From Candidatus Micrarchaeota archaeon (GTDB lineage Archaea; Micrarchaeota; Micrarchaeia; Micrarchaeales; CABMGC01), in assembly GCA_021792235.1 (NCBI GenBank), contig JAJYVC010000001.1, positions 752 through 64,751 on the forward strand: a DNA stretch of 64,000 bases. Direction: 5' to 3'. Under the pieces are notes generated by a model, which saw nothing but the letters and a program-made list of their open reading frames with translations, did not search any database and was not told where the DNA came from. The position numbers and the translations under genes were made by a program. Positions 1,422 to 42,636 of the stretch are shown here, in pieces; within the stretch, counting starts at the first letter, position 1; every line of letters begins with the position of its first letter.

Positions 1422-2036
1422 TTAGGCGCCAAAGAACCTTCCTGATATGTCATCAAGCATGCTCGTTATCGTATCCCTTGAATTTTCGACTTGAACTATG
1501 ATGCTCTCTGGTGGCTGCACCGAAATAACATGCGTCTTGCTGCCGGAGAAAACCCAGTTGCCTATTCTGTACTTCCTGTAGCTGTCGGAGAGATCACACA
1601 CGTAGTTGGACTCGTTAACGAGCTTCGTTATCAGCATGTCGGCCTGCCCGTCGTACTTATCTATGTATATTGTTTCTGGGTTGGAATTGCCAAGGTCCAT
1701 GTCCACTGGTTTAAGGAAGGGCACCCTAGCTATGCCTGCCCTGCTACTAACTGTCTGGTTTATCTGTGAGTACAGCGAATCAACAGATTCGAGCTGCTTG
1801 GTCAATTCTACTTCCTCATCCTTTAATCCGGCAAGAGTATCCTCGAAATATGAGGTCACATCTGCTTTTATCTTATCTATGGTGTCTGCCATATTCTCCA
1901 CATTCTCGAATTCCTCCGGGTGGAGCAGGAGCTTCCTTAGGCTGACATTGTAGTTCTTGGTAGTGTCCGTGTCTATGTCATTTACGAATGCGTCAGTCTG
2001 GCTGTCCCAGGGCAGCTCACCGTCATCTTCAGCCAT
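1422..2036 (-). CDS. hypothetical protein with acidic N-terminus
   Basis: 204-aa ORF packed between neighbouring genes with normal composition. No motif I recognise. Confidence 0.45.
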   Translation of the reverse strand: MAEDDGELPWDSQTDAFVNDIDTDTTKNYNVSLRKLLLHPEEFENVENMADTIDKIKADVTSYFEDTLAGLKDEEVELTKQLESVDSLYSQINQTVSSRAGIARVPFLKPVDMDLGNSNPETIYIDKYDGQADMLITKLVNESNYVCDLSDSYRKYRIGNWVFSGSKTHVISVQPPESIIVQVENSRDTITSMLDDISGRFFGA

Positions 2037-6494: not shown

Positions 6495-7585
6495 CGATAA
6501 CAAGGATAAATGTAGGCCCAGTGCATCCTAGCACGCACGGTGTTATACGGCTGGTGGTTGACCTAGAAGGCGATACCATAGTTCATGTGGAGCCAAGGAT
6601 AGGCTTCCTGCACAGGGGCGTCGAAAAGCTTGCAGAGACCAGGATGTACATGCAGATTCCTCCATACACGGAGAAGCTGGACTACATAGCTCCGATGTCG
6701 TATGACGAGGCATACGTTGCAACTGTCGAGGCTGCCATGAACGTGCAGGTTAGCGAAAGGGCCCAATACATACGAGTGATACTGCTAGAGCTCCAGCGCC
6801 TGGCCAGCCATCTTCTGAGCATCGGACTCCTTTGCAACGACCTGGGCCAGATGTTCACTGGATTCATGTGGACCTTCAAGGACAGGGACATAGTACTCGA
6901 TCTGCTACAGGAGGCTGCAGGTTCAAGGATGTTCTACGTAAACATGAGGCTCGGCGGCATGCGCGAGGACCTTCCGGCAGATTTCATCGAACACACACTG
7001 AGCACGCTCAAGTACCTTGAACATAGGATACCAATGTATGTATCCTATCTGGAGAAGAATCCGATATTCATTGAAAGGATGAAGGGAGTCGGTGTGGTGA
7101 CTAAGGAAGAGGCACTGGACTTAGGCGTCACAGGACCCGTGCTAAGGGCATCTGGGGTGGACTATGATGTCAGGAGGAACAACCCGTATTACGTTTATCC
7201 GAAATTACACTTCAATCCTAAGTATCTGCAGTCGGGAGACAACTTCGCCAGGTACAAGGTGAGGATACTTGAGATGCAGGAGAGCATACGCATCATCAGA
7301 CTGGCCCTCAAGGATATCCCGGAAGGCAATGCTCTCGGAGCTCCCATCAAGCTCAGGAGCCCAAATCCGGTGAACAGGATATCTGTTGTCAGCAGGGAGC
7401 TGCCCAGGGGCGAATGCTTGATGTACATGGTGGCCGATCCGCAGAAGCCGTACCGGCTCTCGATAAGGTCGCCTAACATGATAAATCTGGCGGCGATAGA
7501 CCACATCTCCAGGGGCGCAAGATATGCGGACCTGTTCTCGATACTCGGCACCCTTGACATAGTAATGGGATGCGTGGATAGATAG
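6491..7585 (+). CDS. nuoD: NADH-quinone oxidoreductase subunit D
   Basis: 364 aa. N-terminal NVGPVHPSTHGVIRL and GFLHRGVEKL, C-terminal DIVMGCVDR. These are classic NuoD/49 kDa blocks. Confidence 0.92.
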   Translation: MTITRINVGPVHPSTHGVIRLVVDLEGDTIVHVEPRIGFLHRGVEKLAETRMYMQIPPYTEKLDYIAPMSYDEAYVATVEAAMNVQVSERAQYIRVILLELQRLASHLLSIGLLCNDLGQMFTGFMWTFKDRDIVLDLLQEAAGSRMFYVNMRLGGMREDLPADFIEHTLSTLKYLEHRIPMYVSYLEKNPIFIERMKGVGVVTKEEALDLGVTGPVLRASGVDYDVRRNNPYYVYPKLHFNPKYLQSGDNFARYKVRILEMQESIRIIRLALKDIPEGNALGAPIKLRSPNPVNRISVVSRELPRGECLMYMVADPQKPYRLSIRSPNMINLAAIDHISRGARYADLFSILGTLDIVMGCVDR

Positions 7586-7586
7586 C

Positions 7587-8606
7587 ATGACACTACAGAC
7601 CGACTTGGCAAACCTCTTCAACATACCTTACTGGATGAGCTCTGCAAACATAGTGCACAACATCATAGGAATAATAGTGTACATGATAGTGGTATCCATA
7701 GTATTCTCAATATTCGGATACATGGTCGGCTGGCTAGAGAGGAAGGTCATAGCCAGGGCGCAGTACAGGCACGGCCCCACGTACGTGGGCATGTGGGGAC
7801 TGTTCCAGAACCTTGCCGATCTGATAAAGCTGCTCGCAAAACAGGACGTTGTGCCAGAGTATGCAGACAGGGTTCTGCTTGCAGCTTCCCTTCCTGTTAT
7901 ACTTGCGCTTTCTATGTTCATAGTGCTTCTTCTGCCATACTCTCCGAGCCTTACTGCCACAAGCTTCGGCTTCGGCCTTCTGATGATATTCACCCTAATT
8001 TCATTCTTCCCCCTGCTTCTATTCACTGCGGCTTTCGGGAGCGGCAACAAGTTTGCAGACATAAGCGCACAGAGATCCGTGCTCATACTACTGAGCTACG
8101 AGCTCCCAATACTGTTGGTTCTTGCATCCGTCGTCGCACTGTCTGGCAGCTACAACCTCTCAGGCATAGTGTCAGCGCAGTCATCAAGCCATTACTTCGC
8201 ACTCCTCATGCCTATAGGGTTCGTCGTGTTCTTCATAGCCATGCTCGCCGAGTTCGACAGGCCGCCATTCGATCTTAGGGAAGCTGATTCAGAACTAATA
8301 GCTGGATGGCTTACAGACGTCAGCGCACCATACTATGCGCTGGCGCTCTTCCTTGACTATGCAAGGATGTTCATGGGCAGCATAATAATAGCCATACTCT
8401 TCTTCGGCGGATGGCTCGGCCCATCAATCCTGCCGCCGTTCGCGTGGATCCTGATAAAGGCTTTGATAATAGCGTTCGCCATCATAATAATTAGGGCAAC
8501 AGCGTTTAGGATGAGGATAGACCGCGTGCTTAGGTTCGGGTGGGCGTGGATGATACCGCTCTCATTAATAAATCTTTTAATAACATATATGATATTTGTC
8601 AGGTAA
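7587..8606 (+). CDS. nuoH: NADH-quinone oxidoreductase subunit H
   Basis: 339 aa polytopic membrane protein. RKVIARAQYRHGP, AEFDRPPFDL and E.ELIAGW motifs of NuoH/ND1. Confidence 0.9.
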   Translation: MTLQTDLANLFNIPYWMSSANIVHNIIGIIVYMIVVSIVFSIFGYMVGWLERKVIARAQYRHGPTYVGMWGLFQNLADLIKLLAKQDVVPEYADRVLLAASLPVILALSMFIVLLLPYSPSLTATSFGFGLLMIFTLISFFPLLLFTAAFGSGNKFADISAQRSVLILLSYELPILLVLASVVALSGSYNLSGIVSAQSSSHYFALLMPIGFVVFFIAMLAEFDRPPFDLREADSELIAGWLTDVSAPYYALALFLDYARMFMGSIIIAILFFGGWLGPSILPPFAWILIKALIIAFAIIIIRATAFRMRIDRVLRFGWAWMIPLSLINLLITYMIFVR

Positions 8607-20027: not shown

Positions 20028-20148
20028 TGCGCATCGGGCGATGACTTTCAAGTACGACTCAGTGTCACACCTACGTAATTCTATTCTAACTTGTAATACC
20101 ATCCTAGCGTAGCAACGTAACATATTTATATATATCGTAATATGATAT

Positions 20149-20586
20149 ATGATGAGTGCAATGCCTGACATAGAGATAAAGAACACGGTTAAGCTGTTCA
20201 CAGTCCTTCTGCTCAGCGAGAAAGGGCAGCACGGCTATGAGATAATGAAGGAGGTAGAGAAGAGGACAGGGAAGAATGTCAGTCCAGGGCAGATATATCC
20301 ATTCCTCAAGCAGCTCAAGAAGTACAACTATGTTGAGACTAAGGGAAGGGAAGAGAGGGACAAGCAGGCCTATTATCTGACGCCAGAAGGCAGGAAGTTT
20401 GTGAAAAGGCTTTCAGACAAGTTTGGAGACATGTTTGAGATTGCAATAAAACCAAAGCTTACTGTGTGTGCGCATTGTAACTGCGAGATATACCGGGGCG
20501 GATATAAGGAGAGGATTAATGGCAGGCTCAAGAGCTTCTGCTGTGAGAACTGCGCTAAGAGCTACAGGACGCCTAATGCTCGATAA
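20149..20586 (+). CDS. PadR-family transcriptional regulator with C-terminal TRASH metal-binding domain
   Basis: Winged-helix block QHGYEIMKEV...SPGQIYPFLKQLKKYNYVE...YYLTPEGRKF. C-terminal CAHC-x20-CCENC fits TRASH C-x2-C-x19-22-C-x3-C. Confidence 0.8.
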   Translation: MMSAMPDIEIKNTVKLFTVLLLSEKGQHGYEIMKEVEKRTGKNVSPGQIYPFLKQLKKYNYVETKGREERDKQAYYLTPEGRKFVKRLSDKFGDMFEIAIKPKLTVCAHCNCEIYRGGYKERINGRLKSFCCENCAKSYRTPNAR

Positions 20587-33729: not shown

Positions 33730-33800
33730 GGGCTCGTAGTCCAGCGGTAAGACGCTACCCTCACACGGTAGAGATCGGAGTTCGACTCTCCGCGGGCCCA
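33730..33800 (+). tRNA. tRNA-Val (anticodon CAC)
   Basis: Acceptor GGGCTCG/CGGGCCC plus A73. D arm GTCC-AGCGGTA-AGAC. Anticodon arm CTACC-CTCACAC-GGTAG (CAC at 33762-33764). T arm CGGAG-TTCGACT-CTCCG. No encoded CCA. Confidence 0.85.
33779..33800. repeat. attL-like core: 22-nt 3' end of tRNA-Val
   Basis: agttcgactctccgcgggccca is identical to 39675-39696. Confidence 0.7.
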
Positions 33801-33878
33801 ATCTATCAACGTGAATAGTATCAATTTTAATAATCTTGAATCCTGCACCTTCAAATAAAGTTGTTTGTACATTTTAAT

Positions 33879-34120
33879 TTAAAACTTCTTATCATCGCTA
33901 AATAGATTTACAAGTTTAAGTAGCTGCTCATTTTCTGCACGTTCTTCGCCAGCGTTGAGCCTTCTCTTTATATGGTCCCTAAGCTGATCTATCTCATTTG
34001 TGTTAATTTCATTGTTCTCATCTACAACTTATCTATCCCTCTGATAAAAGAAACTATTTGATCTTGAAGTGCAGCTATAAGTTCATTTAGAGATAGCTTC
34101 TTAAGTTGTTCAAATACCAT
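33879..34120 (-). pseudogene. small helical ORF broken by stop/frameshift
   Basis: MVFEQLKKLSLNELIAALQDQIVSFIRGIDKL* (stop 34022-34024). It continues in another frame as VDENNEINTNEIDQLRDHIKRRLNAGEERAENEQLLKLVNLFSDDKKF* with no start codon of its own. Confidence 0.25.
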
Positions 34121-34538
34121 AACTTCACAGATTTGGTATAGATGTATTTAAATAAACATTCTTAAAAATCTCCATAAATACCATAAAGACAGGAGCTTGT
34201 ATTTATATCCGCAAAGCTTCAACAGTGTTTCATAGACATGGAAAACTGTTCTATTATCATGCAACATGCACGTCTGATCCAGATATTTAGCGAAATCATG
34301 ATGAATTATTAGCATCTGCTAAATTACAAACAGTGCCTCCTCCGCTTGCGTCTGCGAATGTTATAGTACAAGCCCCATTAATATTACTGTTTTATCCTTA
34401 CTGTATAATATCAGATATGTCGAACTGCGGACTCATACCTTAGACAAACAAAAGGCAAAAAGTTCTTTTCTAGCTTTATATAGTTACAAAATTGACATCA
34501 AATGTGTTGATTTTAGAGTCAAGTAGTAAACTATATAT

Positions 34539-35024
34539 ATGAAAAAATCCACAATATGTATGATGAGTATTATGGTAACTAAAACGATAATAGTAGACAA
34601 AAAGAATGGAACTATGAAGGGAGTAGAGGATTTAACAATTCGCCCTCCTACAAGTGGTGGCTATAAGGGATATTTGGGTTCAGGTCCCGCGAAATGGGAA
34701 GTGGAAGCAGATGGTGCACTTGTTAAGGCGCACAGAAGTGGTGCCGGCAGAGGCAGATCACTGGATACAACCTGGAGGGCGCAGGAGATGACTGAAGACT
34801 TCGTTGTAGTAGATACAAAAGGAAAAGAGCTTGTTTCAGGAAAAGCAGGCGATTACCTCGTAATTTCGGAGACGGGAAAGTATGACTACGGCATGAACGG
34901 AGGCACACCAAGACCTGGATGGTATAATTCTGGACTGAAGTTTGAAGTAGTTAAAAAGGGAGATGAAGAATTCACTAAGTTCGTTGCTTTAAAAGCTGCA
35001 GCTAAGGGATCTCTAAGATCCTGA
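34539..35024 (+). CDS. hypothetical protein (island cargo)
   Basis: 161-aa ORF. A TATATAT box abuts ATG 34539, so ATG 34560 (MMSIMVTK) may be the real start. No recognised motif. Confidence 0.45.
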   Translation: MKKSTICMMSIMVTKTIIVDKKNGTMKGVEDLTIRPPTSGGYKGYLGSGPAKWEVEADGALVKAHRSGAGRGRSLDTTWRAQEMTEDFVVVDTKGKELVSGKAGDYLVISETGKYDYGMNGGTPRPGWYNSGLKFEVVKKGDEEFTKFVALKAAAKGSLRS

Positions 35025-35163
35025 ATATAGCTTAGTTAAATAAGAACCAACTTTGACTTAGTATTGAATTTATGGGTAACTTCTGGCATAACTGCTACTA
35101 TTAAAGGCGTTTTTGTATAAATAGCCAGATTGTGTCTATACACTTATAGACACATTACTGCAC

Positions 35164-35665
35164 ATGTCAGATAGGTTGAACCGCAGGCCCATTTTGGAAT
35201 TTACAACTACAAGAGCGGTGTTCGATTACTTTGGCAGAAAAGGGCGTAAGGCGAAGAACCTTGCAAGAATTGTATCTTACTATACGGGGCTTTGGACGTA
35301 GAATTCCAAGCCAGACATAATTGCGATCAAGAAGATACGACGCTTAAGCATACGCGTATTCGAAGGTGGAAAAGAAATGGTGTTTGTTCATCATATACCT
35401 GCCAGATATTTTTTGGGTTTTGATATAATCAGCTACGGCGAATTAAAAATACCAGTATCAGATCCAGAAAAGACGCTGATTGACCTGTTTTATTACAAGG
35501 TAAGGTTTCCGATACAGTATTATGACAGCTTCTCAGAGCTGTTAAAAGGGAAAAATCACCAAGTATCTCAGGGCCTATGACGGCCATACCAAAAAGGCCG
35601 TGCCCAATTTCATAAATAGATACAAAAGGAGCGCAAATTCGGTAAAGTTGCAAAGCCCGTATTGA
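35164..35665 (+). pseudogene. disrupted AbiEi-like / COG5340-like transcriptional regulator gene
   Basis: Three consecutive frame pieces: MSDRLNRRPILEFTT...LARIVSYYTGLWT*, ...GFDIISYGELKIPVSDPEKTLIDLFYYK..., ...ITKYLRAYDGHTKKAVPNFINRYK...*. The central piece resembles the conserved C-terminal block (pEktLlDLly) of that family. No AbiEii partner follows. Confidence 0.4.
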
Positions 35666-35787
35666 CGGACAACATTAACAACGCGCAGGCTGCAACAGCG
35701 GCGAAGGGCAAGTGCCATGGTGCTGTAACTCCGCTTGCAAGGAACTGTTGCGGAAAGGTTTTAATTCAACATGATTAAATATAACTT

Positions 35788-36357
35788 ATGGGATCAGGGC
35801 ATCACATCTGGGATAAAGCCGCAGCTATTAGGTTGCTTAATGATGATAGGGAAAGATCTGAAAATGCTGAATTCCTCAAAGACGTCTTAAGGCCAACAAA
35901 GCAGGTCATAGTGGACCTTGGCTGCGGTTCCGGGTACTACGCGACAAAGCTGAAACCTTTCGCATCAATGCTTTATTGCATAGACAGCAGCGAAGAAATG
36001 CTGTCTGTGGCACGCGAAAGGGTCCATGGCAAAAACATAACGTTTCTCAAAGAGGATTCATCCGGGATCTCCCTCTCTAACTACTCAGTAGACATAGTTT
36101 TCATGGCAAACTCGTTCCACGACATGGAAGACAAATTCGGCGCAAGCGCGGAGATCGCCAGGATTCTGAAGCCTAACGGCATTATAATAGTCATTGACTG
36201 GAAGAAGGGCTCTAAGCAAAACGCCAAAGAGCATCGCGGGCCTCCTGACAGCATACGAATGTCAGAGGCAGAGTATCTTAGGTGGTTTTCCAAGTTCAAA
36301 ATTAAAGCCAGGTTTGAAGCAGGAACAGACCATTTCGGTCTTGTACTAAAGAAATAA
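35788..36357 (+). CDS. class I SAM-dependent methyltransferase
   Basis: VDLGCGSGYY (motif I), DIVFMANSFHDM, LKPNGIIIVIDW. Confidence 0.75.
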   Translation: MGSGHHIWDKAAAIRLLNDDRERSENAEFLKDVLRPTKQVIVDLGCGSGYYATKLKPFASMLYCIDSSEEMLSVARERVHGKNITFLKEDSSGISLSNYSVDIVFMANSFHDMEDKFGASAEIARILKPNGIIIVIDWKKGSKQNAKEHRGPPDSIRMSEAEYLRWFSKFKIKARFEAGTDHFGLVLKK

Positions 36358-36373
36358 ATTGGTTCGGCACCAC

Positions 36374-36408
36374 GCCAAAAGAAGCTTCACCAAGAAAAAT
36401 GGGGCTTG
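36374..36408. repeat. intergenic direct repeat, copy 1
   Basis: gccaaaagaagcttcaccaagaaaaatggggcttg. 30 identical positions with copy 2. Confidence 0.4.
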
Positions 36409-36525
36409 AGGCTTGGTCGCTATGAAGACAAGATAGCACATCAGACCACCATGCACATAGACCTTAGACTGTGCACGCACTTTAGGACAGGCATCTGCAC
36501 ACAGGGTCCAGGCGTCGCATGCATC

Positions 36526-36559
36526 GCCAAACGAAGCCTCACCGAGAAAAATGGGTTTG
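36526..36559. repeat. intergenic direct repeat, copy 2
   Basis: gccaaacgaagcctcaccgagaaaaatgggtttg. Confidence 0.4.
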
Positions 36560-36631
36560 TGTAGACAGCATTGAATAGCGAGCATACCAACTGCCCAATC
36601 CTACCCATCTAGGTGTAGCGCATACGTAACG

Positions 36632-36652
36632 CATATAAATATGATTGATCAT
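36632..36652 (+). promoter_or_regulatory. TATA-like box plus ATGAT-N2-ATCAT inverted repeat in front of the mer block
   Basis: catataaat (36632-36640) is directly followed by atgattgatcat (36641-36652). This would place a transcript start near ATG 36662. Confidence 0.25.
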
Positions 36653-37177
36653 TCATATATCATGCAGAAATATCTCGGGGCAACTGGCGCAGTACGCCTT
36701 GTGCTAAGTGATAAGCGTTATATGGTCGCATTCGTTTTCGTAGCAATTGGATTCTCATTGGCGTATTCTCTTCTTCTCTTTAATTCTTCTGTCAACCTCG
36801 CATTACCTAAAATAGTTTTCGGATTAAACGCCTATGCTCTTGTATTATCAACATTCATAGGGGCGCTGCTTGCGCTCTCAATTACGATGAATGCATTCGC
36901 CTTTATGAACGGCACAGCTTCTAGCAGGAAACTTGGCGCAGGAGCAGTAATAGCAGCCATTATACCAGGCAGCCTGTGCTGCACTTCAGTGATACCAGCA
37001 ATCCTGGCTGCATTAGGGGCATCGACTTCTACAATAATAGGGACAACAGGTGCACTGCAAGGACCATTCGCCACCTACGAACCAGAGTTCATAGCAGCCT
37101 CAATAGGTATGCTCTTACTAAGCATTTTCCTGGTGTCAAAGAGCATACAAAAGTGCTGCGCGGTGAGAAAACGATAA
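36641..37177 (+). CDS. 4-TM membrane protein with two vicinal Cys pairs (candidate Hg(II) transporter)
   Basis: Four predicted TM helices. Intramembrane IPGSLCCTSVIPAIL and C-terminal tail KSIQKCCAVRKR. First gene of the merA block. The start may be ATG 36662 (MQKYLG). Confidence 0.6.
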   Translation: MIDHSYIMQKYLGATGAVRLVLSDKRYMVAFVFVAIGFSLAYSLLLFNSSVNLALPKIVFGLNAYALVLSTFIGALLALSITMNAFAFMNGTASSRKLGAGAVIAAIIPGSLCCTSVIPAILAALGASTSTIIGTTGALQGPFATYEPEFIAASIGMLLLSIFLVSKSIQKCCAVRKR

Positions 37178-37185
37178 ATAAAAAA

Positions 37186-37728
37186 ATGACATTAGCATTC
37201 GTAATTGTGGCGTTGATAATTATTAGTGCACTTATTTTGCTGAGTAACCATAGCAGCACTACTAGTCAGTCACAAAATGTCACAGTAGGCATGCCTGCGC
37301 CGAACTATGGATTTTTCCTAGCGAATGGCTCCGAAGTAAATATTAATACGTATAGAGGGAAACCTGTGCTTCTTTGGTTCGTTGCCACATGGTGTTCATC
37401 ATGCGCCCAAGGAAACGAGGTTATAAACCAGAACTACAATTTCTTCAAATCTCATGGTATAACGATAGTGGAATTAGAGCTATACAAAGATCTCGGATAC
37501 TCAGGTCCTCCGATAGCCGACTTCGTAGATTCATACGCTCTGGAGGCGTATTCAAACGGCACAGTAGTCCCTGCTCTGGCAGGCTACAACATGACTGCCG
37601 TTTATGATCTGCGCGGCTATCTAGATATATACTACCTACTTGCAAGCAACGGGACGGTTCTGTATATAAATGGTTCGCCTTCGGCTACGCTAAGTCAGCT
37701 TGAGCAGGCTATAAATAATTCTATGTGA
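37186..37728 (+). CDS. signal-anchored thioredoxin-fold protein (TlpA/redoxin-like, WCSSC)
   Basis: ATG 37186 is internal to track ORF 36976. MTLAFVIVALIIISALILL anchor, then GKPVLLWFVATWCSSCAQG redoxin motif. Confidence 0.7.
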   Translation: MTLAFVIVALIIISALILLSNHSSTTSQSQNVTVGMPAPNYGFFLANGSEVNINTYRGKPVLLWFVATWCSSCAQGNEVINQNYNFFKSHGITIVELELYKDLGYSGPPIADFVDSYALEAYSNGTVVPALAGYNMTAVYDLRGYLDIYYLLASNGTVLYINGSPSATLSQLEQAINNSM

Positions 37729-37735
37729 GGATTTT

Positions 37736-38068
37736 ATGGATAAGCTGGAAATAAAAACATTCTTTTTTGCAATAGGTGACTACAGCAGGTTCAAGATACT
37801 GTCTGCATTGGCCGAAAAGGAGCTAAATGTAAGCGGAATAGTCTCTGCAACAGGCATAGAACAGAGTAACGTATCACACCACATGGAATGCCTCTTGAAC
37901 TGCGGCTTCGTTGATGTAAGGAGGGAGGGTAGAGCCCGCATTTACAAGGTAAATAGGGAGGTGCGCCCCATAATCAAAAGTATAATAAAGCATATAGAGA
38001 GGTACAAGACCGATATAGTATCGTGCAAAATCGCAAATAAAGAGTATATTTCAAAGGTGATTGAATAG
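37736..38068 (+). CDS. ArsR/SmtB-family metalloregulator (archaeal MerR-type candidate)
   Basis: DYSRFKILSALAEKELNVSGIVSATGIEQSNVSHHMECLLNCGFV. HTH plus Cys pair in ECLLNCG. Confidence 0.85.
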   Translation: MDKLEIKTFFFAIGDYSRFKILSALAEKELNVSGIVSATGIEQSNVSHHMECLLNCGFVDVRREGRARIYKVNREVRPIIKSIIKHIERYKTDIVSCKIANKEYISKVIE

Positions 38069-38088
38069 AGAATTTCGACTACGTTATA

Positions 38089-39483
38089 TTGGGCCAAGGA
38101 TCTGCCGCTTTCGCCGCTGCGATAAAAGCCAACGGGCTTGGCAAGAAGACAGTAATGATAGGCAAAAATGCCACTGAAGGCACTACTCTTGGCGGTACTT
38201 GCCTGAATGTCGGATGTGTTCCGAGCAAGAGGCTTATAACTGTAGCCTCGTTTTTAGAATCGCTTAAAGATAGAAGGTTCAGAGGCATCGATTATAAATT
38301 CAATGGCGATGTTGAGTTAGGTGCGATTGTAAAAGAAAAAGACGATCTCGTAAATGGTTTTAGGCAAAGCAAATATTCCAATGTGCTTGCCGGGCTCGAA
38401 AATGTCACCTATATTGAAGGATTTGGCTCACTGAAAAGTCCTAACATAGTTTCTGTAGGCAAGAAGGAAATATTAGCTAAGAAGATATTGATAGCAACTG
38501 GCGCGAGGGCGAGTGTGCCTGATGTTAAAGGCATAGAAGATATAGAATACCTTACCAATGAAACTGCGCTGAAGCTAAAGAAACTGCCAAAGTCGATGAT
38601 TGTGGTAGGTGGAAGGGCACTTGGATTGGAGTTTGCACAGATGTTTAACAGGTTTGGCAGCAAGGTTACGCTGCTCCAGAGGAGTTCCACTATAATACCT
38701 GGTTGGGAACCTGAGATCATAAATCATCTTACCAAATACCTGAGAGAGGAAGGCATAAACATCCAGACAAATGTCACGCTTAATGAGATCGAAGGTGATG
38801 GCGGCGCCGTGCGCCTAAAATGCGAGGTGGATGGAAAAGCATCTGTATTGGAAGCAGAGAAAGTGCTTTTTGCTACAGGCAGAAAACCAAATATCGAGAA
38901 GCTTAATCTTGATACTATTGGCATAAGGCAGAACAAGGCTGGGTTTGTAGAAGTTGATAGAGGTATGCGCACTAATATTGAAGGTGTCTACGCCGCAGGC
39001 GATGTTACCGGGGAGCCGATGCTGGAAACGCTGGCGGCGAAGGAAGGCACTATTGCTACGCTGAATGCGCTTGATGGCGCAAAGAAGGAAATAAATTTGC
39101 TGGAGGTGCCGAAAGCAATATTTACGGATCCTGAAGCGGCCAGCGTCGGGCTTACGGATGAGGAAGCTGCCGGGAAGAAAATAAGGTGCAACTGCAATGC
39201 CCTTCCGCTGGAGCTCGTTGCAAAGGCGGGCATAGTGAGCGATACTAAAGGGGTCATTAAGATTGTAATAGACAATAAGAGCCATAAGATACTGGGAGTC
39301 CACATGCTAGCACCTCACGCCGCTGACCTAATACATGAAGGTGTACTCGCAGTCAAGTTTGGGCTTACAATAGATGACATAATAGATACTGTCCATGTAT
39401 TCCCGACGCTGAGTGAAGGGTTCAAGCTAGCCGCGCAGGCTTTCTACCAGGATATTTCTAAGCTTAGCTGCTGCACAGAATAG
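38089..39483 (+). CDS. merA: mercuric reductase MerA (core enzyme, no NmerA domain)
   Basis: Redox-active GGTCLNVGCVPSK and C-terminal KLAAQAFYQDISKLSCCTE (vicinal Cys pair diagnostic of MerA). The frame is open from 38065 and encodes the Rossmann strand FDYVILGQGSAAF, but no canonical start precedes TTG 38089. Confidence 0.9.
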   Translation: MGQGSAAFAAAIKANGLGKKTVMIGKNATEGTTLGGTCLNVGCVPSKRLITVASFLESLKDRRFRGIDYKFNGDVELGAIVKEKDDLVNGFRQSKYSNVLAGLENVTYIEGFGSLKSPNIVSVGKKEILAKKILIATGARASVPDVKGIEDIEYLTNETALKLKKLPKSMIVVGGRALGLEFAQMFNRFGSKVTLLQRSSTIIPGWEPEIINHLTKYLREEGINIQTNVTLNEIEGDGGAVRLKCEVDGKASVLEAEKVLFATGRKPNIEKLNLDTIGIRQNKAGFVEVDRGMRTNIEGVYAAGDVTGEPMLETLAAKEGTIATLNALDGAKKEINLLEVPKAIFTDPEAASVGLTDEEAAGKKIRCNCNALPLELVAKAGIVSDTKGVIKIVIDNKSHKILGVHMLAPHAADLIHEGVLAVKFGLTIDDIIDTVHVFPTLSEGFKLAAQAFYQDISKLSCCTE

Positions 39484-39646
39484 CGTAAAATAAGTCAGGA
39501 CTATTCAGATCGCAGGAAATCCTAACACTGGCTGCTTATATATCCAGGACCCGAAGATTAAGTGTGCGAATGCACAGCTTGAAAGCTTATAGCTTTATGA
39601 TTTAGGTAATAAAATGGAGCTTAGAAAACGACGACAAGAGCTAGAA

Positions 39647-39696
39647 AACGCTAGCCTTACACGCTTAAGACTGAAGTTCGACTCTCCGCGGGCCCA
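39647..39696 (+). pseudogene. 3' fragment of a tRNA-Val(UAC)-like gene at the right end of the element (includes attR core 39675-39696)
   Basis: Ungapped 41/50 identity to tRNA-Val 33751-33800, with the last 22 nt identical. The anticodon-equivalent triplet is TAC (39658-39660). One anticodon-stem pair shows a compensatory change (C:G -> G:C). Confidence 0.55.
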
Positions 39697-39792
39697 TTTC
39701 TAAGGCAAATGGTTGAGAACCACAATGATCAAAAATAGAACATAAACCTAACATATTTAAAGCATAGTCCTCTATAATATATAGATGATAAA

Positions 39793-40038
39793 ATGAATGT
39801 CACTCTAAGAGGCAGAGTTCTCCAAGCTCTAGACCAGATAGTAGAAGAAGGATATGCAAATACCAAATCAGAAGCAATACGATTAGCAATACTGGATTTT
39901 GCAGAAAAGCATGAAAGCGAAGATGTCCTTGTCAGTAGAAAACTTGATAGAATTAACAGGGAAATACGGGAAGGGAAGAGAAAACTGGTAGGAAAGAAGG
40001 AAGCTCTGGGTGTCTATGCCAAATACGTTAAGGGATAG
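39793..40038 (+). CDS. ribbon-helix-helix (CopG/Arc-like) antitoxin
   Basis: MNVTLRGRVLQALDQIVEEGYANTKSEAIRLAILDF. Sits 2 nt upstream of the toxin gene. Confidence 0.7.
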   Translation: MNVTLRGRVLQALDQIVEEGYANTKSEAIRLAILDFAEKHESEDVLVSRKLDRINREIREGKRKLVGKKEALGVYAKYVKG

Positions 40039-40040
40039 AC

Positions 40041-40301
40041 TTGTACAAACCCAAGTTTGAGAAGGAATGGTCCAGATACTTCTATGCGTTAGATGAAGGC
40101 ATAAAAGAAAGAGTAGCGAAGAAGATTGATAAGATCTTGGAATATCCAAACAAACGACACCTAAAGAAGAGTTCATTCTTTGTAGATGAAGTGGGACAAT
40201 TCAGAATCGTTTATATGATATTTGAAGAAGATAAGTTAGTAGTATTCTATTTTGTAGGAACGCACAAAGAATATGAGAAATGGTACACACAAGAATTCTG
40301 A
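40041..40301 (+). CDS. RelE/ParE-superfamily toxin
   Basis: 86 aa, TTG start. ...KERVAKKIDKILEYPN...VGQFRIVYMIFEEDKLVVFYFVGTHKEY follows the RelE pattern. Confidence 0.7.
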   Translation: MYKPKFEKEWSRYFYALDEGIKERVAKKIDKILEYPNKRHLKKSSFFVDEVGQFRIVYMIFEEDKLVVFYFVGTHKEYEKWYTQEF

Positions 40302-40356
40302 AAACAGCAAATATAGTTATTCACTATCAGAAGAGTGCTACTTAAAGATTCATGAA

Positions 40357-40367
40357 CCGCGGGCCCA
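40357..40367. repeat. third, 11-nt copy of the tRNA-Val 3' terminus (degraded att remnant?)
   Basis: ccgcgggccca is identical to the last 11 nt of tRNA-Val and of 39686-39696. It is preceded by cttaaagatt, which resembles cttaagact before the second copy. Confidence 0.35.
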
Positions 40368-40439
40368 TCTTGGAAAATATGTTGCTAATTTAGTAATTCT
40401 GGCTGTCAAGTTATTAAGTTTTATCAGTGCCTAACAATC

Positions 40440-40763
40440 ATGGAATACCGTATAATCTTTGATTGTCCTGACAACGCAAAGATGATAAATCGGCTCCTTG
40501 ATGCTGCATCAGGAGCAGGTGCGGGTCGGTTCGGCAACTACACTCGATGCGCGATAATCACCAAGGGCTACGGCACGTGGAAGTCAGAGCGGGGTTCACA
40601 TCCCAACATAGGCAAAGTCGGGAAAATATCAAAGGTGAGATCGGCCAAGATAGACCTATCATGCGATGCCAAATGCCTGGGTGCTGTCTGCAGTGCGATA
40701 AGGAAGGCGCATCCCTACGAGGAACCAAACATCTACGTTGTCAAAGTGGAGAAATATGCCTGA
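40440..40763 (+). CDS. small PII-like protein resembling the NIF3/YqfO insert domain (COG3323-like)
   Basis: 107 aa. GAGRFGNYTRCA...GTW...KAHPYEEP pattern recalled from the stand-alone NIF3-insert family. Confidence 0.45.
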   Translation: MEYRIIFDCPDNAKMINRLLDAASGAGAGRFGNYTRCAIITKGYGTWKSERGSHPNIGKVGKISKVRSAKIDLSCDAKCLGAVCSAIRKAHPYEEPNIYVVKVEKYA

Positions 40764-40800
40764 AATCTTATCCCACAGCTTTTGAACAAAAGATTCAAGA

Positions 40801-41583
40801 ATGAGGAATAATCACGTGGTTAATATGATAACGAGTCAGAGGCAGCTTGAAGGCGTTCTGCGGCATTTGGAGCTGGAATCCACGAAACGTGCAGCCATAC
40901 GGTCCGCAGTGGAGAATGGGATAACCCATAAGCCGAAATACGTGCGCATAGCCGTGGATGAGCTGGCAAAGGCAAAGAGATTCGGTAAAGCAGCCGGATT
41001 CGCATCAAAGATAAATGACGAGGCTCTTGCAAGAGACCTTCTGGCCAAGCAGTACAGGGCAAATATCGCAGAAGTCAGGCTCAAGGAGCAGAATCTAAGG
41101 AAGTTCGAGGACCTTCTTTCAAGGCTGGATAGCCCTGAGGAAATGAGGCATGCGATAATATCGGCAGTGGAACGTGGCGTAACGCACAAATTGGATCACG
41201 TAAGGATTGCAATAGCGCATTATGAGTTAATTGGTCCAGGTGCGTTCAAAGATGCGCAGAAGGCTGCAAAGAGTGTTGGTGCAGTTACATCGCAAATATG
41301 TGAATCAGAGGGGTGGCTAGGTCTTGCGGCATACCTGTCTGAAGGCGAGGGCGACATTGACAGGACAAGGAGCATGTATTCCAGTTACATACAAATGCTT
41401 GAGGACGTAGGAAAGTTCGGAATAGCCGCAGAACTATCCCTTCACAAGCTTAATGATGCGGAAAGGGCCATGGCTGACGGGAAGAAGGCAGGCATGTGGG
41501 AGATCGTCGCAGAGTTATACTGCAGGATCGGGGATGAAAAACTAGCAAATCTGTACGGGAGCCTTGCATCTATGCTGAGGTAG
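40801..41583 (+). CDS. hypothetical helical-repeat protein
   Basis: 260 aa. Internal duplication KRAAIRSAVENGITHKPKYVRIAVDEL / MRHAIISAVERGVTHKLDHVRIAIAHY. TPR-like C-terminal half. Confidence 0.5.
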   Translation: MRNNHVVNMITSQRQLEGVLRHLELESTKRAAIRSAVENGITHKPKYVRIAVDELAKAKRFGKAAGFASKINDEALARDLLAKQYRANIAEVRLKEQNLRKFEDLLSRLDSPEEMRHAIISAVERGVTHKLDHVRIAIAHYELIGPGAFKDAQKAAKSVGAVTSQICESEGWLGLAAYLSEGEGDIDRTRSMYSSYIQMLEDVGKFGIAAELSLHKLNDAERAMADGKKAGMWEIVAELYCRIGDEKLANLYGSLASMLR

Positions 41584-42598
41584 TGCCTGTATCTTCTGTT
41601 TCCTGCCTTCCGCGATTCCTCGAATAGTTGTCGAACCTCTCCGAGCTCTGGTAGAGCTGGTCGAACCTCCTCTTCGCATCGTGCACGCTCATCTTGACTA
41701 TATGTTCGCTCTTCTTGTTTATTATGTTGAGCGGAGGTATCTTGTAAGCGGCATTGCCATCGAATATGAACCTTTCGTGCTGTACACTGGAATCTTGCCT
41801 ATTCATTATTCTGACCTCCATGTCTATACCGCTGGTCCTGAGCTCATTCTTAAGGTCATTGTAGTTGCCGCTGAATTTTGAGTCCAGCATCTCCTCAGAT
41901 GTGATTATCCTCACAGCACTTATTGCGCTCCCCTCAGTAGGCATTAGCCTGTAAAGGTTGGACATTGCGGCTGAGTTGAAGTGCTTGTCAACTATCCCTA
42001 CATCGCCTGACAGGTTCACGAAAAGTTCATCGCGCAGTTTCATGAGGTTGTAATAAGGAGTGGATGGATCTATGCGTATGCCCTTCATTGTAGCTCTTCT
42101 GGCATCCGCAGACTTCCTGGCGTCGTATTCCAGATATATGTCTAGGCTAAGGCACACAAAGATTGATATGTAGCTAATATATAGCGCAACATCATCGAAA
42201 ACCGAAGAAAAAGCAAAACTCATTATCATTAGGACAAATATGTATACGATTGTAAGCATGAAGTGAAGCGGAGCGTATCTCCTGACATACGATTCGTATC
42301 CGTTGGGACCCTTTACTAACAGCATGAATGACATGACAAACATCGCAAACCCTATTCCAGCAGCAAGTGCTGCCTCAAGTATGGTCTGATATATTGTGGT
42401 TATCTCTCCAGAAACAGTTGCAAGCACAGGCGCAACACTTACGTTGTCTATTCTGCTTTGCAGTATGGCCCCTGCGCCTATGCCATACTCTACGGAAAAT
42501 CTGTACATGTTGAGTATTCCGTTGGCCATAAGTATAAGCGAAGCAGTGACTAGCAGTATTGCAGCTGTTTTGTCATTATATCTCCTGATCCCATCCAT
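41570..42598 (-). CDS. membrane protein with cytoplasmic C-terminal domain of unknown function (weak PLD-like/MIT_C-like pattern)
   Basis: About 5 N-terminal TM helices, then ...VGIVDKHF...VRIITS...GIDMEVRIM...HERFIFDGNAAYKIPPLNII. The 3' end overlaps 40801-41583 by 14 nt (convergent). Confidence 0.5.
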   Translation of the reverse strand: MDGIRRYNDKTAAILLVTASLILMANGILNMYRFSVEYGIGAGAILQSRIDNVSVAPVLATVSGEITTIYQTILEAALAAGIGFAMFVMSFMLLVKGPNGYESYVRRYAPLHFMLTIVYIFVLMIMSFAFSSVFDDVALYISYISIFVCLSLDIYLEYDARKSADARRATMKGIRIDPSTPYYNLMKLRDELFVNLSGDVGIVDKHFNSAAMSNLYRLMPTEGSAISAVRIITSEEMLDSKFSGNYNDLKNELRTSGIDMEVRIMNRQDSSVQHERFIFDGNAAYKIPPLNIINKKSEHIVKMSVHDAKRRFDQLYQSSERFDNYSRNRGRQETEDTGTTSA

Positions 42599-42636
42599 GA
42601 CTATCTTTTTACTTGAAAGTTATTAAAACGCCTAGC

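Follow-up and report, generated by a model that had tools for sequence, protein, structure and literature searches.

The window analysed here is a 64-kb stretch (64,000 nt of contig JAJYVC010000001.1) from an acid-mine Micrarchaeota (DPANN) archaeon. Its sole tRNA gene is an intact tRNA-Val(CAC) at 33730-33800 (ARAGORN; 62.2 bits for the Rfam tRNA model against a gathering score of 29), which like all features of the adjoining island lies on the + strand. Downstream of this gene, the island (33801-40367) is made up of three blocks of differing composition, A, B and C, with steps exactly at core copies of the tRNA 3′ end. Block A (33801-35180, 1.38 kb) is followed by block B (35192-39674, ~4.5 kb), which carries the remnant of an AbiE abortive-infection gene, a methyltransferase gene and a mercury (mer) operon, and by block C (39697-40356, 660 nt) with a type II toxin-antitoxin pair. 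The region probably represents the tandem accretion of three integrative-element remnants at the 3′ end of tRNA-Val(CAC) in this Micrarchaeota chromosome.

As the initial annotation had proposed, the last 22 nt of tRNA-Val (33779-33800; AGTTCGACTCTCCGCGGGCCCA), which form the integration core on the side of the left attachment site (attL), are repeated exactly at 39675-39696. This repeat is unique in the window, where no third site was found even with 3 mismatches allowed and where 100 shuffles gave 0 matches. There are three exact copies of the last 11 nt (CCGCGGGCCCA), at 33790, 39686 and 40357 (0.01 expected), and the third of these, the copy that had also been reported at 40357-40367, marks the right limit of the array as core copy 4. 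It lies within an extended repeat (40353-40375), and composition is host-like from this point on. A fourth copy, which the initial annotation had missed, was found with one mismatch at 35181-35191, at the junction of A and B (core copy 2; CCGCAGGCCCA). This copy is held by a 23-nt stretch, 35177-35199, that is 91% identical to 40353-40375, and it coincides with a step in GC content from 36% to 44.5%. The four core copies all lie on the + strand and are restricted to 33.8-40.4 kb, with none elsewhere in the 64 kb. The core at 33790-33799 and its copies contain two overlapping 6-nt palindromes, CCGCGG and GGGCCC.

The 22-nt repeat can be extended leftward to 52 nt at 83% identity (33749-33800 versus 39645-39696). 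The distal member of this pair is a partial tRNA-Val comprising the 3′ 52 nt with a UAC-type anticodon loop, and its last 22 nt constitute core copy 3, the right attachment site (attR) of B; neither ARAGORN nor Rfam calls a tRNA in this segment. It is identical to other Micrarchaeota tRNA-Val(TAC) genes at 24/30 positions, versus 21/30 for the tRNA of the host. Being of the UAC type and nearer to tRNA-Val(TAC) than to the host gene, the fragment is foreign, and arrived with the element rather than by duplication of the host gene.

Against a background of 48.5 ± 2% GC in the rest of the window, blocks A, B and C have 36.2%, 44.5% and 35.0% GC, respectively, each lower than all equal-sized windows elsewhere in the 64 kb. 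Their tetranucleotide distances from the rest of the window (z = 7.8 for A, 3.9 for B and 6.4 for C) are likewise each above those of every control window, and the right flank (40368-42600, 2.2 kb) is host-like (z = -1.3). The compositional limits of the island therefore coincide with the tRNA and the last core. The earlier impression, gained by eye, that the DNA between the copies is richer in AT than its flanks was thus confirmed by windowed GC and tetranucleotide analysis. By contrast, the single 5.9-kb element that had been proposed between the tRNA and 39675 proved to be a composite of A and B, so that the array probably records three integrations, not two: the tandem arrangement first suggested stands, and its number is revised by the core copy at 35181.

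Ends of block B and tRNA-Val elements in relatives

Both ends of block B have counterparts in other genomes (loci and contigs used for comparison carry L numbers). Directly after core copy 2, the left arm of B (35192-35240), a relic of the DNA that comes after tRNA-Val in relatives, aligns with the tRNA-proximal junctions of L029, L032 and L069; it contains the motif ACAACTACAAGAGC (35203-35216) and is now fused to a truncated AbiEi gene. At the other end, the right arm (39590-39644), which contains an ATG (position 39614) and the motif ACGACGACAAGAGC (39628-39641), is homologous over the ~55 nt that precede the distal repeat to the element-side arm of distal junctions in other Micrarchaeota genomes (L026, L049 and L056). 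Since both arms align with element ends in relatives, B has kept both ends and lost the body of its recombinase. Together with the foreign partial tRNA, these arms support the original proposal of site-specific integration into the 3′ end of tRNA-Val. To judge by the alignments, B belongs to a family that is intact in relatives and that has a recombinase gene a few bases past the tRNA at one end, and ~50 nt of tRNA-Val with a conserved arm at the other.

The recombinase itself was searched for without success, in support of the earlier view that the element is immobilised. A six-frame Pfam scan of 33801-35800 at E ≤ 1 revealed no integrase domain, the called ORFs (open reading frames) contained none, and tblastn with the integrase of relatives gave nothing in the island, where only the arm remnants remain. 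A weak tblastn match to the integrase elsewhere in the window, at 20137-20409, is not a recombinase. Deletion of the recombinase genes would have precluded self-excision, leaving the cargo captured. Two candidate remnants were set aside. The gene after core copy 2 was considered as an integrase N-terminus and rejected, since its homologues and PADLOC identify it as AbiEi; a reading of the two arms of B as Int(N) and Int(C), left over from an integrase gene that had been split, was set aside as undecidable, since start codons directly follow the tRNA and the upstream frames are not conserved.

Among species-representative genomes the 22-mer was found at 53 loci, mostly in tRNA-Val genes of Micrarchaeota and Methanosarcinaceae. 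Four of these loci (L026, L046, L049 and L061) hold 3′ fragments with the 22-mer and without an ARAGORN tRNA call, and are, as far as their sequences indicate, distal junctions like that at 39645-39696. In L069 and L032, a gene begins a few bases past the end of tRNA-Val. The L069 gene, whose start codon abuts the tRNA end and which has one in-frame stop, encodes a PF00589 catalytic domain (E 1e-9) with HxLRH and Y motifs. The 3′ end of the same recombinase gene (97% DNA identity) is present in L026, along with a RelE-type toxin-antitoxin pair, an arm and a partial tRNA-Val. Taken together, L069:676-1593(-) and L026:1-1049 give a composite element of ~1.7 kb that consists only of a PF00589 recombinase, a RelE-like toxin and an antitoxin, which indicates that such small elements exist at tRNA-Val. 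To our knowledge, this element is among the smallest integrative elements. Recombinases of one type occur in the CAC gene of L032 and in the TAC gene of L069, which fits a crossover within the 22 nt common to the isoacceptor genes. No free forms of these elements were found in viral contigs searched with the integrase protein, a 161-aa protein of block A, the core-plus-arm pattern and the 22-mer.

The position of the recombinase gene relative to the tRNA invites comparison with the 'suicidal' SSV-type integrases, in which the attachment site lies within a gene with PF16795 (PMC8371274; Badel et al., PMC7253208) and whose known hosts are Sulfolobales, Thermococcales, Archaeoglobales and a few Methanosarcinales (PMC8371274; PMC7253208). 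A likeness to the integrases of SSV1, pTN3 and pT26-2 is seen in the attachment site of the relatives' elements, which is placed at the very start of the recombinase gene, and in L026, where a frame of 82 nt that opens with an ATG spans the tRNA-like segment and is in phase with the recombinase; integration would then cut off a short N-terminal piece of the protein. Unlike the SSV-type enzymes, the relatives' recombinase has no PF16795 match and has starts directly past the tRNA, with an upstream frame that is not conserved. At E ≤ 10 the L069 protein matched no domain other than PF00589, and its best PDB match was XerA (4A8E, E 0.02), not the SSV1 integrase. An ATG or TTG start directly follows the tRNA end in L029, L038, L032 and L069, so that the recombinase gene may stay intact after integration, and the upstream frame is out of phase or broken in L049, L056 and the window (83 nt). 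With the in-phase frame of L026 set against the post-tRNA starts, the broken frames, the sole PF00589 domain and the XerA match, membership of the SSV type is undecided for the relatives; in the window, from which the recombinase gene is gone, the question is moot. Were the recombinase truly split on integration, the 'suicidal' type would extend beyond the PF16795 lineage and beyond its known hosts in the Sulfolobales, Thermococcales, Archaeoglobales and Methanosarcinales, which would imply an independent origin.

A motif of ~14-28 nt (ACGACGACAAGAGC and variants) was also observed on both sides of the tRNA-like segment in the window and at the L026, L029, L032 and L069 junctions. At proximal junctions, one copy lies ~11 nt past the tRNA end; at distal junctions, the motif stands immediately 5′ of the partial tRNA, in a reading frame that differs from that of the proximal copy. 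In a reconstituted attachment site the two copies would form a direct repeat ~79 nt apart, and they may be an arm-binding site of the recombinase or the trace of a duplication. It is conceivable, if rather doubtful, that Micrarchaeota carry an undescribed family of very small tRNA-Val elements, exemplified by the ~1.7-kb element of L069 and L026, with an attachment site within or adjoining the first codons of a PF00589-type recombinase gene and with the ~14-28-nt motif as a direct repeat on either side of the tRNA-like segment. If such a family exists, A and C would be non-autonomous passengers moved in trans, and the window would be a fossil record of its activity. The region also provides precise junctions for a tRNA-Val-specific recombinase family found in relatives, and these could serve as a genetic tool for organisms that are currently without any.

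Similar fragments were seen beside complete genes in other hosts. A partial tRNA-Val 3′ fragment with the 22-mer and a full tRNA-Val gene share one replicon in the chromosome of Methanolobus sp. ZRKC3 (L031 and L046), and the same combination is found on a contig of Micrarchaeota LSA5.bin40 (L022 and L049). Fragments placed beside full genes in this way suggest that this target also serves elements of Methanosarcinaceae, and that in Micrarchaeota it is used in a GAC isoacceptor gene as well. In L036, tRNA-Val(TAC) at 1499-1571(+) and tRNA-Val(CAC) at 7545-7616(-) lie 6 kb apart in opposite orientation, and recombination between elements at both genes could invert the segment between them.

An insertion hotspot and its probable history

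The gene order upstream of the island, comprising genes for an aldehyde dehydrogenase (ALDH), ScpA, ScpB, an AAA protein and a cobalamin adenosyltransferase followed by tRNA-Val, recurs at 45-80% protein identity in Micrarchaeota/Micrarchaeia loci, which identifies the host as a member of this DPANN group. This synteny is kept in at least 8 Micrarchaeota, and the DNA after the tRNA is different in every one of them. Downstream of the same tRNA lie a recombinase gene in L032, GNAT and Lrp-like genes in L080, an ATPase gene with a second partial tRNA copy in L056 and unrelated DNA in L041; the tRNA-Val of the window is identical in L032, L041, L079 and L080. As relatives carry unrelated DNA after the same tRNA, the site is a hotspot across the group.

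These observations are consistent with a history in which each element carried an attachment site mimicking the 3′ end of tRNA-Val, and in which strand exchange by a tyrosine recombinase within the common core would have rebuilt the tRNA at the left junction and deposited a core copy at the right one. With each newcomer entering at the intact tRNA, the newest insert would lie next to it, giving the order C (toxin-antitoxin pair) as the oldest, then B (AbiE remnant, methyltransferase and mer operon) and then A as the newest. The tRNA would then meet the left end of A at junction 1. At junction 2, A would finish in ...TGAA and core 2 would lead into the proximal arm of B; at junction 3, B would finish in its distal arm and partial tRNA, with core 3 leading into the left end of C; and at junction 4, C would finish in ...TGAA, with core 4 leading into the host flank. 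Three integrations would be the simplest history and would account for all four junctions. Loss of A and B together would be recognisable by the full tRNA followed by TTTCTAAGGCAAATGG, an empty site by the full tRNA followed by TCTTGGAAAATATG, and a circular form of B by ...GACTGAAGTTCGACTCTCCGCGGGCCCATTTTGGAATTTAC.

Several results weigh against accretion of this kind. A single-mismatch 11-mer such as core 2 is not significant alone (0.63 expected), and cores 2 and 4 have only 11 nt in common with the tRNA; core 2 is taken as a junction because of its flanks and the GC step, and not for the 11-mer alone. Neither A nor C has a gene or an end that links it to a known element, and the mercury reductase gene of B has no canonical start at the position homologous to that of its relatives, so that the activity of its product is uncertain. 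The island is also present in every conspecific contig that reaches it, with no presence/absence variation: the flanking genes were found by exact-protein look-up on 18-19 contigs, from NCBI metagenome-assembled genomes (MAGs; GCA_027363135.1 and GCA_027339545.1), ENA and Logan assemblies, and conspecific contigs match the window at >99.8% identity with no indels. An empty site, with the tRNA followed by the right flank of the window, was found in neither relatives nor conspecifics. A scan of the genome collection with the adjacent adenosyltransferase protein returned no relatives, exact-protein look-ups with both flanks gave conspecific contigs only, all carrying the island, and a metagenome scan with a tRNA 39-mer yielded two contigs, neither of which had the right flank of the window. 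The 260-aa protein encoded in that flank is an ORFan with no homologue outside the species among 5.8 billion proteins, so that a before-and-after comparison is lacking.

Among short-read Logan contigs (L006-L010 and L020), those from five samples end at 33779 or 33798, in the 3′ half of the tRNA, and one contig starts exactly at 39696. Presence/absence variation was rejected as the reading of these ends, since tRNA sequence common to co-occurring strains explains the breaks equally well and is their probable cause, though alternative junctions could be hidden in the raw reads.

The inheritance of the island as a unit, with no internal polymorphism, could instead reflect one integration of a single ~6.6-kb island spanning 33801-40367, with the cores at 35181 and 39675 being internal features or the products of later rearrangements, and the mismatch and 11-nt length of core 2 agree with such a history. 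It is nevertheless unlikely. A complete distal junction lies inside the island, formed by the 22-mer, its tRNA-like extension to 52 nt and an element-type arm; the three compositions are separated by sharp steps exactly at the cores; and an arm of proximal type follows core 2.

A non-mobile origin, through partial duplication of the tRNA gene or recombination between two tRNA-Val loci, with the low-GC genes being fast-evolving host genes, appears very improbable. A presumed genomic tRNA-Val(UAC) gene could have donated the UAC-type fragment, two tRNA-Val genes do lie 6 kb apart in L036, and the island is fixed in the species. Yet the arm of the fragment is common to junctions beside recombinase genes in other genomes, mobile DNA typically carries cargo of the kind seen here (toxin-antitoxin pair, AbiE remnant and metal resistance), the composition is foreign, and the nearest MerA is just 65% identical. 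Repeated integration at tRNA-Val thus remains our preferred reading.

Blocks A and C

Block A, an outlier in both GC and tetranucleotide composition, contains short ORFs and one intact ORF of 161 aa (34539-35024) with a hydrophobic N-terminus. Pfam and PHROG-type profile scans, including six-frame scans, gave no family matches in the block except a weak one to PGDYG, and no relatives of A were found among viral contigs. The initial annotation had described the left 2 kb of the island as nearly devoid of intact ORFs; this does not hold, as the stretch includes the 161-aa ORF, the AbiEi pseudogene and an intact methyltransferase gene.

The second short cassette that had been proposed to the right of B corresponds to block C, which ends at core copy 4. 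Its type II toxin-antitoxin pair consists of an 81-aa antitoxin resembling ribbon-helix-helix (RHH) proteins (39793-40038; weak RHH match, E 0.07) and a RelE/ParE toxin (40041-40301; Pfam ParE_toxin PF05016, 26.9 bits against a cutoff of 23; PHROG RelE-like, E 1e-7). The genes are spaced 2 nt apart, as a RelE/ParE toxin-antitoxin pair, and their products may stabilise the locus. Block C is known from this context only, in 17 contigs. A close kinship between its toxin and that of the L069 element was considered and rejected, since the two are relatives at the superfamily level only.

Blocks A and C both end in ...TGAA followed by the 11-nt core and have nearly equal GC, and they may be related to each other or be non-autonomous cassettes. 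This bears on a variant of the accretion history in which A and C never had a recombinase of their own and were att-flanked cassettes moved in trans, comparable to the cis-mobilisable elements of bacteria. The small sizes of C (660 nt) and A (1.4 kb), their common ends and near-identical GC, and the lack of a recombinase remnant in either would all fit. A parallel is offered by the syntenic relative L057 (4602-6937), in which 12 nt of the tRNA-Val 3′ end (TCCGCGGGCCCA) are repeated 2.25 kb farther downstream. The core-flanked stretch encloses ASCH-domain genes and a gene for a 394-aa protein, and none of its long ORFs resembles a recombinase, as judged from the long ORFs with no family scan made. 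Even so, we regard this variant as a tentative one with the balance against it: no second copy of A or C was found in another context, the common TGAA amounts to 4 nt only, and internal deletion of a recombinase, which clearly occurred in B, explains the same facts.

To the right of the array, the 260-aa ORFan (40801-41583) is encoded by DNA of host-like composition. A fourth, older element 'D' right of 40367 was considered and rejected, as only ~12 nt resemble the proximal arm and the flank is compositionally native.

Cargo of block B and comparison with known systems

The mer operon that had been recognised as cargo was confirmed, with four tightly spaced genes that encode a membrane protein, a redoxin, an ArsR-type regulator and a MerA that scores above the TIGR02053 cutoff. 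The first gene (36641-37177) specifies a membrane protein of about four helices with a membrane-embedded LCC motif and a C-terminal CC. It matched no family in Pfam, NCBIfam or PHROGs and gave no match to MerT/P/C/F/E. A gene for this protein is also found in the mer operons of two DPANN contigs, L081 and L084, adjoining the redoxin gene in both, and the LCC cysteine pair is invariant among the three proteins. From its conserved cysteine pairs and operon membership, the protein is a candidate for Hg(II) uptake. Its AlphaFold model (predicted local distance difference test, pLDDT, 55.6) was too poor for a fold search and was not used. The second gene (37186-37728) encodes a membrane-anchored redoxin of thioredoxin fold, similar to ResA/TlpA, with a WCSSC motif (Pfam AhpC-TSA and Redoxin); the match to the NCBIfam ResA-like model is below cutoff, and the CxxC is kept in L081 and L084. 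The ArsR/SmtB-family metalloregulator (37736-38068; Pfam HTH_5, E 1e-14; NF033788, 74 bits against a cutoff of 55) is the presumed mer repressor. Last in the operon is the gene for MerA (38065-39483; TIGR02053, 551 bits against a cutoff of 454), the core of mercury(II) reductase without the NmerA domain. In an alignment with 10 DPANN MerA proteins, its redox pair C46/C51 (CxxxxC) and C-terminal pair C469/C470 (CC) are invariant. The four products would together detoxify mercury: the Cys-pair membrane protein would take it up, the redoxin would handle thiols, MerA would carry out the reduction and ArsR would exert control.

The first codon of merA is ATA (38065), overlapping the ArsR stop codon TAG (38066-38068), where the ten homologues have Met (M-E-x-F-D-Y), and the codon is the same in all strains. 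The next in-frame start, the TTG at 38089 used in the MAG annotation (464 aa), would drop the first strand of the fold that binds flavin adenine dinucleotide (FAD). Either the ATA is used, as a start codon or by reinitiation, or the gene has been freshly disabled. A comparison of strains bears on this operon and on the AbiEi pseudogene of B: we counted 6 single-nucleotide polymorphisms (SNPs) in 763 nt of the pseudogene stretch versus 4 in 2843 nt of the mer operon (Fisher p = 0.008), a small hint that the mer genes are still constrained. The pseudogene and its higher SNP density are signs of decay in B.

The same four mer genes occur in the two other DPANN contigs, in the order of the window in L084 and with ArsR first in L081. 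The nearest MerA homologues are 65% identical, and those with a named source all come from Micrarchaeia, Marsarchaeota (source label), Mancarchaeum, Parvarchaeum, Acidifodinimicrobium and Aenigmarchaeota; identity at this level, with sources of this type, points to a DPANN-type mer operon from a lineage that is not closely sampled. In the contig with the closest MerA (L081:5468-9416; 65% identity), the operon (ArsR, membrane protein, redoxin and MerA) directly follows a Xer-like PF00589 recombinase gene. No tRNA lies nearby, which indicates a different mobile or chromosomal context.

The mer operons of Sulfolobus combine an ArsR-type regulator with MerA. The operon of the window resembles those of archaea in its core MerA without NmerA, its ArsR-family regulator and its tight spacing; it differs from them in that its two accessory genes, for the membrane protein and the anchored redoxin, fall outside the MerT/P/C/F/E families and in that the MerA of this species begins with ATA. 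MerA has already been catalogued in 22 Micrarchaeota genomes, and Micrarchaeota/Parvarchaeota MerA proteins have been described (PMC8261052).

At the level of the whole island, the intact boundary tRNA, the distal repeat of its 3′ end and the foreign composition are those of a tRNA-targeted island, while an integrase gene was not found inside it. In the ICESt1/CIME family of Streptococcus thermophilus, integrative and cis-mobilisable elements accrete site-specifically at tRNA genes. The array resembles that family in its tandem att-flanked modules, some of them without recombination genes, and in repeated integration at one site; it differs in being archaeal, in having far smaller modules and in the absence of conjugation genes. 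Archaeal islands captured after loss of the integrase ('gene capture') are described by She et al. (2001/2004), as cited in PMC8371274. The island is like these in being framed by an intact tRNA and a repeat of the tRNA 3′ end, in having a GC content below that of the host and in its cargo of metal-resistance and toxin-antitoxin genes. It is unlike them in its host, a DPANN Micrarchaeota MAG, in the stacking of three tiny remnants (0.66-4.5 kb) and in that no integrase is left. A bias towards tRNA-Val, and mercury-reduction genes on islands, have been reported for acid-mine archaea (PMC12302457), so that a low-GC tRNA-Val island with mercury and toxin-antitoxin genes fits what is already known there and is a clear but ordinary case of gene capture. 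Its interest would rise if the recombinase of the relatives were an independent split-gene type, or if A and C were cassettes mobilised in trans. The case illustrates how an ultra-small DPANN genome (~1 Mb in relatives) may gain and fix adaptive genes, by repeated integration at a tRNA and subsequent loss of the recombinase.

Two further genes of block B precede the mer operon. The AbiEi-like pseudogene (35192-35665), a remnant of the antitoxin/regulator of the AbiE abortive-infection pair, has 31 homologues of ~210 aa and is matched by PADLOC AbiEi (E 2e-5). When it is aligned with these homologues, ~45 aa are missing from its interior and its N-terminus proves to be replaced, while an in-frame stop and a frameshift interrupt the gene. 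Intact homologues adjoin AbiEii (PF08843), a partner that was not found in the island, so that the AbiE pair of AbiEi and the AbiEii nucleotidyltransferase is incomplete here. The gene that follows is intact and encodes a class I methyltransferase dependent on S-adenosylmethionine (SAM) (35788-36357; Pfam Methyltransf_11, E 4e-20). In the 283-nt gap between this gene and the mer operon, a 31-nt direct repeat is present at 36373-36403 and 36525-36555 (90% identity, 152 nt apart), which could be a duplication of an operator or promoter, or a decayed remnant.

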